Source: an uncultured Gammaproteobacteria bacterium | GTDB taxonomy: Bacteria; Patescibacteriota; Patescibacteriia; 2-01-FULL-39-33 | Reading direction: 5' to 3' | Assembly: GCA_964558935.1 (NCBI GenBank) | Contig: CAZLFP010000001.1 | Coordinates: 5,299-69,298, forward strand | DNA length: 64,000 bases | In this document: positions 4,839 to 53,413 of the stretch, in pieces | Position numbering within the stretch: position 1 is the stretch's first letter | How the letters are laid out: every line of letters starts with the position of its first letter | The notes under the pieces: model-generated | Databases searched by the model: none | Seen by the model: the letters and a program-made list of their open reading frames with translations, nothing else | Told to the model about the DNA's origin: nothing | Position numbers and translations under genes: made by a program

Positions 4839-5192
4839 ATGCAAGATATCATTCCACCCGATTTTAATAAAGATCAATTACCGGAAGAAAGTTTGAGAAA
4901 TATCGCTTACTGTCCGGTTTGTCATCATCATTACAACCCGATCCAAGCTAAAGTAGTGGAGGAGGGAAATGGTGCTCATTTGATTTATGTCAAATGTAAT
5001 CGTTGTCAGTCTTCCATTCTGGCTCTAATACTAGCTGGCAGTTTTGGTATTAGTTCAGTCGGTTTAATAACTGATTTAGACAGTTACGAGGTTTCTAAAT
5101 TTTGTCGCTTATCTCCGATTTCCAGTAACGAAGTCATTAAAGTGCATCAAAAATTGGCTGAAACTAAATATATACATCAATTATTTAGCTAA
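4839..5192 (+). CDS. hypothetical protein with CxxC...CxxC zinc-ribbon and a C-terminal hydrophobic segment
   Basis: CPVCHHH...CNRCQ motif pair. No SD; the mRNA may be leaderless. Confidence 0.4.
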   Translation: MQDIIPPDFNKDQLPEESLRNIAYCPVCHHHYNPIQAKVVEEGNGAHLIYVKCNRCQSSILALILAGSFGISSVGLITDLDSYEVSKFCRLSPISSNEVIKVHQKLAETKYIHQLFS

Positions 5193-5216
5193 ATTTAGAT
5201 AAATATTTTTTAATTA

Positions 5217-5288: not shown

Positions 5289-5972
5289 ATGACAATTAAA
5301 TTAAATGCCAAACCACGCACGGTTGTGGGTAAAAAAGTGGCTGATTTAAGACAAGCAGATATTATCCCGGCTGTTTTATATGGTCATGGCGATAAAAATT
5401 TGAATTTAGCTTTGCCTTTCCAAGAATTTAATAAGGTGTTTGCTCAAGCGGGTGAAAATACCATTATTGATCTTGCTGTAGCAGGTACAGACCAGCCGAT
5501 TAAGGTTTTAGTGGCCGATACTCAATTAGATCCAATTAAGAATCAGGTTATACATGTTGATCTCAAAAGAATTAAAATGGATGAGAAGATTACGGCTAAC
5601 ATCAGTATTAATTATATTGGGGAAGCACCAGCGGTTAAAGAGTTGGGCGGTATTTTTGTCCATAATTTGGATGAGCTGGAAATCAAATGTTTGCCTGGAG
5701 ATTTGATTCATGAGGTTGATGTAGATATTTCCACTCTTAAGTCTTTTGATGATATAATTAGTATTGCAGACCTGTCTATACCTGCAACGATTGAAATCAT
5801 AGGCCATGAACCGACAGATGTGGTGGCAACGGTTACTCCTCAAAAAGTGGAAGCCGAACCCGTTGTTGAGACAAGTTCTGCAGAAACTGAAGAACAAGCC
5901 AAGTCAGATGACAAAGACCAAAAAGATCAAGCACAAGATTCAGAAGCTAATTCAAAGCCAAAAGAAGACTAA
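5289..5972 (+). CDS. rplY: 50S ribosomal protein L25 / general stress protein Ctc, with acidic/Lys-rich C-terminal tail
   Basis: L25/Ctc N-terminal and beta-barrel domains (IPAVLYGHG...) followed by a low-complexity tail. Confidence 0.85.
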   Translation: MTIKLNAKPRTVVGKKVADLRQADIIPAVLYGHGDKNLNLALPFQEFNKVFAQAGENTIIDLAVAGTDQPIKVLVADTQLDPIKNQVIHVDLKRIKMDEKITANISINYIGEAPAVKELGGIFVHNLDELEIKCLPGDLIHEVDVDISTLKSFDDIISIADLSIPATIEIIGHEPTDVVATVTPQKVEAEPVVETSSAETEEQAKSDDKDQKDQAQDSEANSKPKED

Positions 5973-7008
5973 GCCAGAGACTGCCAACTGGACTTGGTAT
6001 TTAATAGCTGCCTGCATTGTCTTAGGTATAGTTGGCAGCTTTTTAATGATTTACGTTTGGTTTTACCAGGAAATCAGTAATATTCGTTTTCAGCACATAG
6101 ATACCAGTCAGACCGCACGCAAATTGGATGGAGTGGAAGTTCCGGCTCATCAAGCCAATCTGTTGCCGGTTGCGATTATGATCGAAAACGAAAAAGATTC
6201 CCGTCCACCCGCCGGTTTGGTTGAAGCTAAATTAGTGTATGAAGTGCTGTCTGAGGGAGAAATAACCCGTTTTTTGGCCATCTATGATTTAACGGAAGAT
6301 TTAGATAGAATTGGGCCGGTTCGAAGTGCACGTCCATATTATATCCAGATAGCCAAAGAGTATGATGCTCTGTATGTCCATTGCGGCGGCAGTCCAACCG
6401 CTCTGGCTCAATTAAAGCATGAAGATGAGATTGTGGATTTAAACGAATATTTTGGTTTTAATTCCGGCTATTTTTGGCGAGATAAGGGGAAGCTAGCTCC
6501 CCATAATTTATACACTTCAACGCAACTGCTTCAGTCTGCCAAGGATCATTATCGTTTGACAGATGATGTTTCAGATTTTACTTCTTGGCTGTATAAGTCA
6601 AAACCGGCTCAAACTCAACAGCCGGAACAGAGGATTGTCATTCCATATTCGCAAAGCAGTACTTACCAAGTAACCTGGCAATACCAACCTGAGGTTAATC
6701 TTTACCAAAGATGGCAAGACAACCGTCAGCATACAGATGAGTTGGGCCAAGGCGTAGCAGCAGATAATGTGGTTATTCTATTTGCTCAGACTCAGGTAAT
6801 TGACGAAGTGGGTAGAAGAAAGATTGATCTGGTCGGCAGTGGTAGAGTTCTAGTGTTTAGAGATGGTCAGGTTATTGAAGGTACCTGGCAAAAGTTGGAA
6901 GCTTGGCACAGAACCACTTTTTTTGACAGCAACCAACAGGAGATAGTCTTAAACCAAGGACAAACATGGATTCAGATAGTGCCTCAGGAGTTAGTTGTGA
7001 CGTATTGA
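5908..7008 (+). CDS. DUF3048 (YerB-like) domain protein, membrane-anchored
   Basis: PVAIMIENEKDSRPPAGLVEAKLVYEVLSEGEITRFLAIYD matches the DUF3048 core, preceded by an N-terminal TM. The track ORF starts at 5806 and overlaps rplY; ATG 5908 is my choice of start, and the true start is uncertain. Confidence 0.6.
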   Translation: MTKTKKIKHKIQKLIQSQKKTKPETANWTWYLIAACIVLGIVGSFLMIYVWFYQEISNIRFQHIDTSQTARKLDGVEVPAHQANLLPVAIMIENEKDSRPPAGLVEAKLVYEVLSEGEITRFLAIYDLTEDLDRIGPVRSARPYYIQIAKEYDALYVHCGGSPTALAQLKHEDEIVDLNEYFGFNSGYFWRDKGKLAPHNLYTSTQLLQSAKDHYRLTDDVSDFTSWLYKSKPAQTQQPEQRIVIPYSQSSTYQVTWQYQPEVNLYQRWQDNRQHTDELGQGVAADNVVILFAQTQVIDEVGRRKIDLVGSGRVLVFRDGQVIEGTWQKLEAWHRTTFFDSNQQEIVLNQGQTWIQIVPQELVVTY

Positions 7009-7033
7009 CAATAATTATTGTTTTACATATAAT
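7005..7033 (+). promoter_or_regulatory. sigma70-like promoter
   Basis: TTGACA at 7005-7010, a 17-nt spacer, then TATAAT at 7028-7033. Confidence 0.5.
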
Positions 7034-7039
7034 CTAGGC

Positions 7040-7167
7040 AGTCGCCACTACTTGGGGAAGGGGTGACTTGACACCAGGAGACAAATTTGACTCTCCCACC
7101 ACGCCCATTATGGGCAGTCTCCGTCCCCGGGGCAAGCTCCTCCGACATTAGCTTGCCCCTCTTTTTA
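7040..7167 (+). ncRNA. candidate small RNA 1 (~125 nt) between promoter and terminator
   Basis: GC-rich, hairpin-rich transcript. It ends in the terminator GGGGCAAGCT..AGCTTGCCCC + T-run at 7129-7168. Confidence 0.35.
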
Positions 7168-7202
7168 TTGACAAAATATCTAATCTGTGTTAGTTTGTAG
7201 GT

Positions 7203-7366
7203 ACATGGCCGAAGCCGGTCTTAGTGACCGGCCTAGCGCGATGCCCCGCTATGTGCCAGAGAGTGTTGAGTCCCGGTTGCCAATCCCTGGATTCATAAAC
7301 TCCCCGTGTTAAGGGCAATAGCGGAATTTGGCTTATTGAGGTAGACTAACGTAGTCTACCTTTTTT
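7203..7366 (+). ncRNA. candidate small RNA 2 (~160 nt)
   Basis: Starts after TTGACA at 7168-7173 with a weak -10. Contains the hairpin GCCGGTC..GACCGGC and ends in the terminator GGTAGACT-AACGT-AGTCTACC + TTTTTT at 7340-7367. Confidence 0.3.
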
Positions 7367-7407
7367 GTTTAAATTTAGATAAAAAAATAGCTAATATGGA
7401 TTAACTA

Positions 7408-7436
7408 TTGACAAAATAATGAAAGTGTGTTATACT
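7408..7436 (+). promoter_or_regulatory. sigma70-like promoter
   Basis: TTGACA at 7408-7413, a 17-nt spacer, then TATACT at 7431-7436. Confidence 0.5.
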
Positions 7437-7442
7437 TGTAGT

Positions 7443-7633
7443 TATCATCTGAGAACAAGGAGAAAAAAAATGAAGTTCGCGTATGCCGGTTCAGCAACAG
7501 AGATGTAACTCTGTTGCTACATTCAGAGGGTTTTTGTCCCCGTTTGTACCCCGTCGAGATCAAACGGAGAGCCTAGAGGAAGCAGAGCCTCACCCCACAT
7601 CTTGTGACTAACAATCACAGGTGTGGGGTTTTT
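7443..7633 (+). ncRNA. candidate small RNA 3 / leader-peptide transcript (~190 nt) with a 12-codon ORF at 7470-7508
   Basis: SD AAGGAG lies 8 nt before ATG 7470 (MKFAYAGSATEM*). A 10-bp hairpin follows the stop, and the bidirectional terminator at 7593-7634 is shared with prmC. Confidence 0.35.
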
Positions 7634-8436
7634 AAAATTTTTAAAAAGCGATCTTTTCCGCTTAGGTCTTTTTCCAAGTTGCCATTAGAAAAATATTTAT
7701 TGGCTAACTTCAAAGTTTGTTTGGACAGTAGGGTGTTTATTTCTAACATCACCAGTTGAGGTGTTTTTTTTAATTCTTTAATTTGTTGAAACAGTTTTTC
7801 AAATAATTCTAAATCTCCATAGAGGGCAGACTTGGGTTCAAATTTAATTGAGCCGTGTTTTTCAGTGTTTTTTAAATAGGGGAGATTGGCTAGGATGATG
7901 TCCGGATTTGTTTTGATATTTTTAAGCAAATCTGACTGAATGAATTTTATTTTAACTGTGTTTAATTTTGAATTTTGTTTGGCCACTTTTAAGGCAGAGG
8001 CGTATTTATCTGAAGCAATTACATTGAGGTGAGGTAATAGTTTTTTTAAAGTGATGGCGATACAACCGGAACCGGTACCAATGTCTAAAACAGTGATTTG
8101 TTTTAATTTATTAGCCTTAATGTAATCCATAGCTTTATCCACCAACTCTTCTGTTTCCGGTCTGGGAATTAAGACATGTTTGTTGACTTTAAAAGTTAAG
8201 CCATAGAAGTCTTTTTGATTTAAAATGTAAGCAATGGGTTCTTGCTTATTTCTTCTGTTTAAATGTTTATCGTATCTATCTTGTTGTTGTTGGGTTAACA
8301 CATATTCCGGATGAGAATACAAAAAGCTTTTATCTTTGTTTAAAATGGAAGATAATAAAACCTCAGCATCTAAAAGGGGAGTGGGTGAGGTTTTAAGTCT
8401 TTGATTGCCTTTACTCAGATTATCTTTGATTGTCAT
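7615..8436 (-). CDS. prmC: peptide chain release factor N5-glutamine methyltransferase
   Basis: SAM-binding motif VLDIGTGSGCIAI and NLPY (NPPY-type) motif. It sits immediately downstream of prfA. Confidence 0.85.
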   Translation of the reverse strand: MTIKDNLSKGNQRLKTSPTPLLDAEVLLSSILNKDKSFLYSHPEYVLTQQQQDRYDKHLNRRNKQEPIAYILNQKDFYGLTFKVNKHVLIPRPETEELVDKAMDYIKANKLKQITVLDIGTGSGCIAITLKKLLPHLNVIASDKYASALKVAKQNSKLNTVKIKFIQSDLLKNIKTNPDIILANLPYLKNTEKHGSIKFEPKSALYGDLELFEKLFQQIKELKKTPQLVMLEINTLLSKQTLKLANKYFSNGNLEKDLSGKDRFLKILKTPHL

Positions 8437-17908: not shown

Positions 17909-17984
17909 TAAAACATCAAGTCAAGATATTGGTATTTTTTGTTTAAATTTAGACAAATATACCTCATTATTGATTACTAAAAAT

Positions 17985-34668: not shown

Positions 34669-34701
34669 AACATTATTTTAAAGTGTTGTCAAATTATATT
34701 A

Positions 34702-34727
34702 AATAGCTAAAATTAGCTATTTTTTTA
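34702..34727 (+). terminator. intrinsic terminator
   Basis: Stem AATAGCTA / TAGCTATT followed by TTTTTT. Confidence 0.55.
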
Positions 34728-34746
34728 AATTATTATCCTAAAATAC

Positions 34747-34775
34747 TTGACAAAATAATATTAATATGCTATAAT
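34747..34775 (+). promoter_or_regulatory. consensus sigma70 promoter
   Basis: TTGACA at 34747-34752, a 17-nt spacer, then TATAAT at 34770-34775. Confidence 0.55.
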
Positions 34776-34781
34776 GAAATT

Positions 34782-35373
34782 ATTAAAACTTATAACTAGC
34801 TGATTAACTCTGGGGAGAGATGAGTCAAGCTAAGAAACATATTATTTGTAATGTCATAAAATCTCCCCAGACCAGGGAGGTTTTATGTTTTAACCAAGGA
34901 GGGAGAGAGCTGCTGATGCTTGTCAGTTCCAAACTCCTTGTTAGGGCGCTAGCATACAGCTGTATGTTACTGCCCTGAACAAGGGTTTTGGAATCAGTTC
35001 CTTACAATTTGGCTAGTAAACATGTAGAGGAGGGAAGAGTAGACACGGTTTCTGGTTATGCGACTACGGTCGTTTCTACCAGGTCCACTTAACTGCTCTT
35101 GGAATAACCAGGCTATTTAATAATTTTTTTATAAAACAAAGAGCCAGGGTTTTCCGGTTGCCATCCTCTATGTGCTTGCTAGTCAAACTATCTACCCCTA
35201 ACTGATACGAAGGAGGTGATGCTTGTCACTCCTGCTTAGCAGGAAGAACAGGTGAGTACCAACTCCGGTATAAATATCTAATAACAAATATTGACTGGTA
35301 AGTTGGTACTAGCCTTGTTCGTATCAGTTAGAGGTGGCATGGGGCTACTTCTAAAAGCAAGGAAAAGAGAGAG
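34782..35373 (+). ncRNA. candidate large structured non-coding RNA or long structured 5' leader (~590 nt)
   Basis: No ORF over 60 aa. Many compensatory hairpins, a 14-nt perfect inverted repeat at 35198-35211 / 35318-35331 that encloses nested stems, and the motif GATGCTTGTCA duplicated at ~34915 and ~35219. Appears GC-elevated by eye. Confidence 0.4.
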
Positions 35374-35520
35374 ATGCAAAATCAACTCGAGAAATTGGCA
35401 GACCAGATTCTGCTGGAGGCTGGTTTCGCGACCGATGGTCGCGAAAAGAGCGAGGTAGATCCTCGTCAAGAAGCGTTTGAGAAACGTTTCTGGACGAATG
35501 CGGTGGGCACTGCTCGTTAG
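35374..35520 (+). CDS. hypothetical 48-aa protein
   Basis: SD AAGGAAAAGAGAGAG precedes the ATG. GC-elevated. A hairpin GTGGGCAC/GTGCCCAC follows the stop. Confidence 0.35.
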   Translation: MQNQLEKLADQILLEAGFATDGREKSEVDPRQEAFEKRFWTNAVGTAR

Positions 35521-35634
35521 TGGTGCCCACTACTCCTTGGCGAGTTAGACAAGTCAGTTTAACTCGCCTCTCAATTCAAGTTAGTAACTAGCCTTTATTG
35601 GCTTCAATTGGGACTAAATAAAGGAGGAAAGTAT

Positions 35635-35838
35635 ATGTTAGTCCAGTGTTGTATGTGCAAGAAAGTCCGTTCGGGGCAGTCCTGGGACTGGGATCTGCCT
35701 GATGAGCAGCCTCTAAAGGGCAAAATCTCGCACGGCTTTTGCCCGGACTGCTTGGCCCTTGAGATGGCCAAGTTTGATAAGCTTGCCGAAGAAGTTCGGC
35801 AAGCGGCCGCCGATCTCAATGGCGGCATTCTACCGTAA
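35635..35838 (+). CDS. small 4-Cys zinc-ribbon protein (67 aa)
   Basis: SD AAAGGAGGAAAG precedes ATG 35635. Cys pattern CC.C...CPDC. Shares the motif H.(F/I)CP.CL with the ORF at 53207. Confidence 0.45.
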   Translation: MLVQCCMCKKVRSGQSWDWDLPDEQPLKGKISHGFCPDCLALEMAKFDKLAEEVRQAAADLNGGILP

Positions 35839-35971
35839 ACATTAGAGGAGGAAAGATTATGAGATAATCTTTCTTCCTCTCTCTACTTTAGCCGGTATCT
35901 ATTGAGGATATGGGCTGAAGAGGAGGTGAACCGGCAGAGTCAGATCATTGACCTGCCTAAGGGAGATTAAT

Positions 35972-53139: not shown

Positions 53140-53168
53140 TTGACAGTTTTTTGGTCTGTGAGTATAAT
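53140..53168 (+). promoter_or_regulatory. consensus sigma70 promoter
   Basis: TTGACA, a 17-nt spacer, then TATAAT at 53163-53168. Confidence 0.5.
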
Positions 53169-53206
53169 TACTCTTACCCGGTGATCTCAACATCCTAGGA
53201 GGGATA

Positions 53207-53413
53207 ATGTACAAGTTTACTGGCAAAAACTGTTATCTGTCGTGTGATAGCTCCTTGTGCTCAGCTAGGTCGCCTAGCGGCAAGAGCCCACATGACGCTC
53301 TGACAATGGCTGTCCGGCGTGGTTGGAAGATTGACCAAGGGAGGGATCATGCAATTTGTCCCGGGTGCCTTAAGCGCCTGGAAGAGGTGGAGCAGCCGCT
53401 TCAGCTGGTCTAG
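53207..53413 (+). CDS. small Cys-rich zinc-ribbon protein (68 aa), GC-elevated
   Basis: SD AGGAGGG precedes the ATG. Cys pattern C...C....C ... CPGC. Shares H.(F/I)CP.CL with the ORF at 35635. Confidence 0.45.
   Translation: MYKFTGKNCYLSCDSSLCSARSPSGKSPHDALTMAVRRGWKIDQGRDHAICPGCLKRLEEVEQPLQLV

Follow-up and report, generated by a model that had tools for sequence, protein, structure and literature searches.

We analyzed a gene-free gap at positions 7009-7614 of a 64-kb stretch of contig CAZLFP010000001.1 (hereafter the window, meaning the whole stretch of DNA analyzed, 64,000 nucleotides), which belongs to a tightly packed genome of ~40% GC. The gap separates two convergent rows of genes, with FtsW, a 117-aa protein, L25 and DUF3048 on the + strand to its left and rpmE-prfA-prmC on the − strand to its right, and its GC content peaks at 58%, compared to 30-45% in its neighbors. 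An initial annotation had placed three + strand promoter-to-terminator units at 7005-7634, between DUF3048 (+) and prmC (−), with transcripts of ~125, ~160 and ~190 nt. Our analysis recovered all three units and the same transcript lengths. The features, read from left to right, are as follows.

7005-7033, + strand: promoter P1, TTGACA-17-TATAAT, matching the sigma-70 consensus at 12/12 positions.
7040-7169, + strand: predicted unit 1 transcript of ~125 nt, with a GC-rich body and fast-diverging hairpins.
7053-7071, + strand: the sole conserved element of unit 1, TGGGGAAGGGGTGACTTGA / TGGGGAAGGRGTGACTTGA, a very strong Shine-Dalgarno (SD)-like stretch followed by a 4-nt spacer and UUG.
7129-7169, + strand: terminator T1, a perfect 10-bp stem (7129-7138/7150-7159, inverted repeat I4) with an 11-nt loop, then TCTTTTTATT.
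7168-7196, + strand: promoter P2, with a perfect −35 TTGACA (7168-7173), a 17-nt spacer and a weak −10 TAGTTT (7191-7196, 3/6) after TGT.
7204-7367, + strand: predicted unit 2 RNA of ~160 nt, with a 5′ hairpin domain, an 11-bp long-range helix and terminator T2.
7205-7312, + strand: a 35-codon open reading frame (ORF) in unit 2.
7338-7367, + strand: terminator T2, stem 7339-7348/7352-7361, then TTTTTT.
7364-7383, no strand: TTTAAATTTAGATAAA, an AT-rich palindrome within the highly conserved spacer that precedes P3.
7408-7436, + strand: promoter P3, TTGACA-17-TATACT, 11/12, with a TG extended −10.
7443-7634, + strand: predicted unit 3 transcript of ~190 nt, a putative small mRNA with a conserved non-coding 3′ domain.
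7457-7462, + strand: SD sequence AAGGAG, 7 nt before the ATG at 7470.
7470-7508, + strand: a 12-codon ORF encoding MKFAYAGSATEM, with a TAA stop.
7493-7502/7509-7518, + strand: a 10-bp hairpin (inverted repeat I6), with the last codon and the stop codon of the 12-codon ORF in its loop.
7528-7591, + strand: the 64-nt unit 3 3′ domain, containing GGTTTTTGTCCCCGTTTGTA and GGAGAGCCTAGAGGAAGCAGAGCC.
7592-7634, + strand: terminator T3, arms 7592-7602/7619-7629 (inverted repeat I7), then TTTTT.

Both borders of the gap lie within these signals. The DUF3048 stop codon TGA (7006-7008) falls within the −35 hexamer of P1 (7005-7010), and the prmC stop codon (7615-7617, − strand) falls within the terminator hairpin of unit 3. 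A promoter scan that required at least 4/6 matches per hexamer returned P1 and P3, as the initial annotation had them, while P2 was rejected because its −10 hexamer matches at only 3/6 positions. Thus, the earlier assignment of the unit 2 promoter to the TTGACA at 7168 holds for the −35 element, which is perfect, but the −10 element is weak. In the whole window, 13 sites matched the consensus at 11/12 or better, compared to 2.5 expected, and all but two of these were in gene-free gaps, most of them just upstream of a gene start. As such sites are rare and mostly confined to gene-free gaps, they are informative in this organism. The first 27 nt of P2 are 81% identical to P3 (direct repeat D1), which is the only resemblance among the three units; the units are not paralogues of each other.

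The three terminators of the initial annotation were supported by inverted repeats and by minimum-energy folds, in which the stems of T1, T2 and T3 all form. T1 adjoins P2, and T3 faces prmC. However, the proposal that unit 3 ends in a bidirectional terminator was not supported: no T run follows the T3 stem on the − strand and the prmC stop codon lies inside the hairpin, so T3 is not a canonical bidirectional terminator. Each of the three transcripts folded better than its shuffled controls, with z = −3.1 for unit 1, −5.0 for unit 2 and −3.9 for unit 3.

To a large extent, the evidence that these units are maintained comes from one close relative. L004 is a 1.5-kb contig from the Joint Genome Institute (JGI) whose PrmC (P0002) is 88% identical to the window PrmC. 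It has all three units in the same order, including the P2 element and P3, and its sequence stops 12 nt before the conserved unit 1 motif. As a neutral yardstick we used the 4-fold degenerate sites of prmC, which are 76% identical between the window and L004. Identity to L004 was 90% for the unit 1 5′ motif, 42% for the unit 1 interior and 57% for the unit 1 terminator; 79% for the unit 2 body; 92% for the spacer plus P3; and, within unit 3, 52% for the 5′ untranslated region (UTR), 74% for the ORF, 86% for the 3′ domain and 95% for the terminator. In units 2 and 3, every predicted base pair was kept despite 20-25% divergence (93 predicted pairs, 0 broken).

The 12-codon ORF of unit 3 is preceded by an SD sequence, as had been reported, and it is kept in L004, which bears on the suggestion in the initial annotation that its conservation be checked in relatives. 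The L004 counterpart encodes MTKFAYAGTATEM after GAGGAG, giving a peptide of 12-13 residues, M(T)KFAYAG(S/T)ATEM, with an SD sequence in both genomes. The 11 codons shared by the two ORFs differ by 8 substitutions, of which 7 fall at codon position 3; together they cause one conservative residue change (S to T). The ORFs also differ by a one-codon in-frame indel. The probability that 8 random substitutions would cause no more than one residue change is 8.5e-5, and the probability that at least 7 of 8 would fall at position 3 is 5.8e-4. Read in either of the other two frames, the same stretch undergoes 6-7 changes. These data are strong evidence that the 12-codon ORF, and with it the predicted peptide, is under peptide-level purifying selection (P about 1e-4).

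The 10-bp hairpin, which had been described as lying directly after the ORF, instead straddles its last codons, with the stop codon in the loop. It contains three compensatory pairs relative to L004. Three of the position-3 changes fall within its 5′ arm and are matched by compensating changes in the 3′ arm, so that peptide and hairpin alike are maintained. For unit 3 as a whole, comparison with L004 gave 47 predicted pairs, of which 4 were compensatory and none broken, while 16.9 broken pairs would be expected by chance. The 3′ domain includes a 20-nt invariant block and differs from L004 by a 1-nt indel, which excludes a protein-coding role; the domain is thus conserved as RNA. The same indel excluded a 42-residue ORF that spans unit 3 in the +1 frame. 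At the far end of the unit, the C-terminal tail of PrmC is frameshifted between the two genomes (KILKTPHL in the window, RIEKPHTCDY in L004) while the DNA of the T3 hairpin is 95% identical, indicating that selection acts on the hairpin and not on the protein tail.

Unit 2 appears to be a structured non-coding RNA. Its 11-bp long-range helix encloses a hairpin with the loop UUGCCAAUC. Using RNAalifold, we obtained 46 pairs for the window and L004, of which 4 were compensatory, 7 were compatible through one-sided changes and none were broken. Random placement of the 33 substitutions in unit 2 broke 13.5 pairs on average, and zero broken pairs occurred in 0 of 100,000 trials (P < 1e-5). The 35-codon ORF of unit 2 is open in both the window and L004, and its ATG at 7205 is 8 nt after the P2 −10 hexamer, a leaderless-like layout that is common in this genome. 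Its substitutions are distributed 8:5:9 over the three codon positions, 14 of 35 residues differ and the ratio of nonsynonymous to synonymous substitution rates (dN/dS) is near 1. As these changes match random placement (p = 0.55), the constraint is on the RNA and not on a protein, and we rejected the ORF as coding because of its neutral substitution pattern.

In unit 1, 18 of the 19 positions of the conserved element are the same in L004, and the element occurs once in the window. Its SD-like stretch is predicted to pair with the anti-SD sequence with a duplex energy of −13.2 kcal/mol. The ORF that begins at the UUG has 27 codons in the window and 31 in L004, with no amino acid similarity between the two, and runs into T1 in the window and through T1 in L004. 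As a selected feature, the fact that the ORF reaches T1 in both genomes was not significant (chance P = 0.14). The interior of unit 1 has diverged well past what neutral sites show, and it is predicted to fold differently in the window and in L004. We discarded a tRNA-like cloverleaf, as the four-way junction of the window is not kept in L004, and also a pairing of the unit 1 motif with unit 3 (GGGGUGA/UCACCCC), whose complementarity is not conserved in L004. We read unit 1 as a candidate small RNA (sRNA) whose conserved part is an element like a ribosome-binding site. Ribosome recruitment, SD mimicry or pairing with C-rich targets may each be its role.

We searched for known families, homologs and targets. 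The Rfam scan that the initial annotation had proposed found no known RNA family in the gap: with Rfam 15 at the gathering score there were no matches in the whole window, and at E-values up to 10 the region 6900-7750 gave four chance-level matches, with 9-17 bits compared to thresholds of 48-65. Permissive Rfam searches of the related loci L001, L004, L005, L007, L014, L015 and L018 also yielded no family. ARAGORN detected no tRNA or transfer-messenger RNA (tmRNA) in the window, where the count of tRNA genes is zero, and none in 8 related loci. Pfam gave no match to the ORFs of the gap, and a concatenate of all six matched none of 5.8 billion proteins. No CRISPR-like repeat or creA-like element was found in the gap, and no CRISPR family matched. 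Scans of viral contigs with the cores of units 2 and 3 and a blastn search against phage records were likewise without matches. When metagenomes were scanned with the 20-mer that is invariant in unit 3, only the L004 contig was recovered. On the − strand of the gap there was no conserved ORF and no promoter matching at 10/12 or better. We also built covariance models of unit 2 (R1) and unit 3 (R2). On the relatives and the whole window, R1 and R2 returned only self-matches, so that position and architecture are the sole indications of homology across the slot.

The lineage is sparsely sampled. A search of 5.8 billion proteins with PrmC and DUF3048 gave one close relative (P0002, 88%), followed by matches of 52-60%, with no further PrmC above 52%. 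In GTDB genomes, no PrmC relative exceeded 40% identity, and exact look-up of the window PrmC and DUF3048 proteins returned no record. The nearest named relatives of the two proteins are from metagenome-assembled genomes labeled Patescibacteria, Buchananbacteria, Falkowbacteria and Doudnabacteria. The DUF3048 ORF, called mechanically, has 400 aa (5806-7008) and overlaps the 3′ end of the L25 gene (5289-5972); since the database copy has 320 aa, the true start is probably near 6046.

We examined the same slot in these relatives. In L005, whose PrmC is 51% identical, the gene order is the same without DUF3048, and the gap is a gene-free, GC-rich region of ~1 kb that has a single promoter, located after L25, and a single terminator at its end. 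Downstream of DUF3048, the gaps in L007 and L018-21 measure ~0.4 kb and 515 nt, and in L007 a 12/12 promoter directly follows the DUF3048 stop codon. The gap in L024 is 988 nt. In the closest DUF3048 relative (60%), L013, only 37 nt (L013:3851-3888) separate DUF3048 from prmC, leaving no RNA in the slot. At PrmC loci that are more distant, the neighbors are different. None of the relatives examined has a protein gene in the slot; such a gene, decayed in the window, was among the findings that the initial annotation had named as refuting it. Between clades, blastn detected no sequence similarity at the slot. What recurs is the architecture, namely a strong promoter, + orientation, structure, G-rich SD-like motifs and SD-led mini-ORFs of 5-14 codons. 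The slot RNA of L014 folds with z = −5.4, and the starts of the mini-ORFs are partly conserved within a clade (MPIHNKSP/MPHNRSP/MLHSRSP; MRRD/MQRD/MQLR). Thus, the slots of the relatives seem to contain GC-rich RNAs that have SD-led mini-ORFs and are analogous, though not homologous, to those of the window.

Two of these loci, L014 (4112-4700) and L015 (4112-4661), represent two strains and have identical DUF3048 proteins and flanks that are 100% identical (promoter, first ~60 nt and final hairpin), while the 480-nt interior of the slot is only ~55-65% identical. Contigs L016 and L017 break at the point where L014 and L015 diverge, and L022-L024 carry the L014 allele. The replacement of the interior between L014 and L015, together with the gap-less L013, indicates rapid turnover of the slot, which at least one lineage can dispense with. 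Past the conserved terminator, the L014-type slot extends for another ~330 nt, gene-free and with GC-rich hairpins, up to the next − strand gene (L024:2080-2330).

Some observations elsewhere in the window concern translation initiation and spacer motifs. The housekeeping genes rplY, prmC, prfA, rpsB and tsf lack SD sequences (for example at starts 5289, 8436, 9495, 10148, 10882 and 59025), and several ATGs that lie 6-8 nt past a −10-like hexamer look leaderless. Strong SD sequences precede a minority of genes, often small or hypothetical ones. A second large GC-rich gap (34669-35947), behind a 12/12 promoter at 34747-34775, contains SD-led small ORFs, including a 6-codon ORF (MLVTPA), a 48-aa ORF at 35374 and a 67-aa ORF with CxxC...HGFCPDCL at 35635-35838, none with a Pfam match. 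At 53140-53413, an orphan 12/12 + strand promoter lies between two − strand genes, with an SD-led, Cys-rich ORF of 68 aa (53207-53413) that contains HAICPGCL, has no Pfam match and is weakly similar to the protein at 35635 (pairwise E = 0.007). The palindromic motif TTTAAATTTAGA(T/C)AAA occurs three times in the window, at 5188-5203, 7368-7383 and 17942-17957, and an identical 19-nt stretch is common to 7361-7379 and 17935-17953. A similar palindrome, TAAATTTAGC, follows the L25 stop codon in L005. This recurrent palindrome may be an operator or just AT-rich spacer.

A model that accommodates these results, and that we favor with moderate confidence, is that the gap contains three independently promoted, intrinsically terminated + strand small genes specific to one Patescibacteria lineage, of which unit 3 would also code for a peptide. 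The anatomy of promoters and terminators, its conservation in L004, the maintenance of RNA structure and the peptide-level coding signature are present in the aligned DNA. In this model, unit 2 would be a structured non-coding RNA and unit 3 a bifunctional transcript, with an SD-led peptide mRNA as its 5′ half, whose end and stop codon lie in a conserved hairpin, and an untranslated conserved RNA domain as its 3′ half. Unit 1 would present an element resembling a translation initiation site (strong SD, 4 nt, UUG) before fast-diverging hairpins and a terminator. The RNAs would act in trans, through base pairing or as ligands of a protein or the ribosome, rather than as cis attenuators, and the peptide would be a separate product. 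Translation from the unit 1 SD and UUG may enter T1 and so modulate read-through into unit 2. Of the possibilities raised in the initial annotation, candidate small RNAs or micro-protein genes thus gain support from L004, while the attenuator reading of unit 3 does not.

Several points weigh against this model. Transcripts and peptide alike are predictions from sequence, these exact units are carried by two sequences only, and it was on this same pair that the structures were both modeled and scored. Over its whole length, unit 2 (79% identity) is no more conserved than neutral sites (76%), and with the weak −10 of P2 it may be made by read-through from P1 and not independently. R1 and R2 match nothing in relatives, and a duplex-energy target scan of 64 translation-start regions in the window gave no outlier. 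Finally, a peptide of 12 residues is shorter than the dual-function sRNA products listed in the review PMC12310071.

In leader-peptide attenuators such as trpL, pheL, hisL and the pyrBI leader, translation of a short ORF decides termination, and the units could in principle work in this way in cis, tuning read-through to the next unit or antisense into prmC-prfA. Unit 3 has an SD-led 12-codon ORF, a stop-codon hairpin and T3 downstream; the unit 1 SD and UUG open an ORF that enters T1 in the window and passes through it in L004; and T1 adjoins P2 while T3 faces prmC. We nevertheless consider such attenuation quite unlikely. No + strand gene is downstream in any genome, the next feature in the window and L004 being the convergent prmC, and the 12-codon ORF has neither regulatory codon runs nor rare-codon pairs. 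Because the arms of the stop-codon hairpin covaried while the 3′ domain and T3 were unchanged, no conserved pairing links the ORF to T3, and there is no antiterminator-terminator alternative. The peptide sequence is itself selected, which attenuation sensing does not require, and the unit 1 ORF could reach T1 in both genomes by chance. A decayed protein gene, or 3′ UTR and terminator DNA that insulates convergent operons and carries chance promoter-like hexamers in AT-rich spacers, would explain a gap between convergent operons, the weakness of P2, the neutral overall identity of unit 2 and the 35-codon ORF that is open in both genomes. That there are no separate genes is very improbable, as two promoters match at 11/12 or better with conserved spacing kept in L004, 0 of 93 predicted pairs are broken and the 12-codon ORF has a coding signature. 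Moreover, no frame has a Pfam or protein homolog, the slots of the relatives are without a gene and the 35-codon ORF has a dN/dS near 1. We also regard as highly unlikely that the gap encodes a divergent housekeeping RNA, possibly fragmented and missed by Rfam, such as tmRNA, signal recognition particle (SRP) RNA, 6S RNA or RNase P RNA. The units are GC-rich, structured, strongly promoted and located among translation genes (L25, RF1, PrmC, L31, S2, EF-Ts), and unit 3 resembles the mRNA-like domain and tag region of tmRNA in having a short frame with its stop in a conserved hairpin loop, followed by structured RNA. In unit 3, GGAAGCAG may also be reminiscent of SRP helix 8. However, Rfam was empty over the gap even at permissive E-values, ARAGORN found no tmRNA, there is no tRNA-like domain and the ORF, unlike that of tmRNA, has its own SD and AUG. 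6S RNA is an end-to-end rod of ~180 nt with a large central bubble; no unit folds as such a rod, as 6S and SRP RNA do, since the minimum-energy and consensus folds are multi-hairpin, and there was no 6S match in Rfam. An empty slot in L013 and the lack of sequence conservation across relatives are also unlike essential RNAs.

In a different alternative, the units are a fast-evolving conflict cassette, for example an RNA toxin-antitoxin pair or a defense-related RNA of the CreT mini-ORF kind, with strongly promoted, SD-led mini-ORF RNAs that hinder translation and alleles that turn over between strains. In the RNA toxin CreT, a mini-ORF is preceded by a strong SD, begins with an efficient start codon and is followed by a stable stem-loop (PMC8501985). 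The units share strong promoters, strong SD sequences, mini-ORFs and stable stem-loops with CreT, and in unit 3 a strong promoter, AAGGAG, AUG and a very short ORF with a 10-bp hairpin at its end occur together. The unit 1 interior diverges faster than neutral sites (42% compared to 76% identity), the interior is replaced between the identical flanks of L014 and L015, the cluster is absent from L013 and SD-led initiation is a minority mode in this genome. Yet neither AAG UUC, codons 2-3 of the unit 3 ORF in the window, nor ACC AAG, their counterpart in L004, is a rare pair, and we rejected a CreT-like rare-codon reading because no consecutive rare codons follow the start. The ORF is longer than that of CreT, its amino acid sequence is selected and there is no creA or CRISPR-Cas neighbor. 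Type I toxin-antitoxin was rejected as well, since the peptides of the gap are not hydrophobic and its − strand offers no antisense partner gene. Phage and viral collections gave no match, and units 2 and 3 are under purifying constraint, not diversifying selection. A conflict cassette is therefore, in our judgment, distinctly improbable. Also unlikely, we think, is the broader idea that, in this branch of Patescibacteria, the slot between the L25-DUF3048 operon and rpmE-prfA-prmC is a long-maintained, fast-evolving RNA locus acting on the translation machinery. What is kept there would be structured RNA with strong promoters and SD-led mini-ORFs, in a genome whose housekeeping genes mostly lack an SD sequence. 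Such RNA might serve as a decoy for the anti-SD or the ribosome, sense translation or work like an RNA toxin-antitoxin module, and strains would exchange its alleles. What speaks for these translation-directed and conflict readings is that unit 1 and the slot turn over faster than neutral sites and that SD-led initiation is rare in housekeeping genes.

Returning to three small genes as the favored model, the units resemble tandem intergenic sRNA clusters such as OmrA/OmrB, PrrF1/PrrF2 and the RsmX copies in that a single intergenic region contains a head-to-tail row of small genes, each running from promoter to terminator, and in unit 1, as in OmrA/B and RybB, the 5′ element is conserved while the body varies. 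Unlike those clusters, the three units are not paralogues and one of them is predicted to be coding. For unit 3, the closest functional analogy would be a dual-function sRNA, as exemplified by SgrS/SgrT, SR1/SR1P, Spot 42/SpfP and VcdRP/VcdP (review PMC12310071, which gives product sizes of 29-53 residues). Like these, unit 3 is a predicted small transcript (~190 nt) with its own promoter and intrinsic terminator, both conserved in L004, and combines an SD-led small ORF under peptide-level selection with a separately conserved untranslated domain (86% identity, above the neutral 76%). Unlike these, its ORF has 12-13 codons, there is no sequence or Rfam relationship and it is found in two metagenomic genomes only.

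In our searches of the literature, small RNAs and micropeptides were almost absent for Patescibacteria (the Candidate Phyla Radiation, CPR), whose genomes are tiny and whose regulation is largely unexplored. The locus thus provides three testable small-gene candidates, although with two sequences only it is today a lead. If translated, the ORF of 12-13 residues would be among the shortest conserved coding genes in bacteria. In relatives, what the slot contains is patchy and turns over fast, a hint of an accessory RNA system that may be linked to translation. The locus also shows that a GC-rich island combined with a consensus promoter and a terminator is a reliable guide to such genes in these AT-rich genomes.

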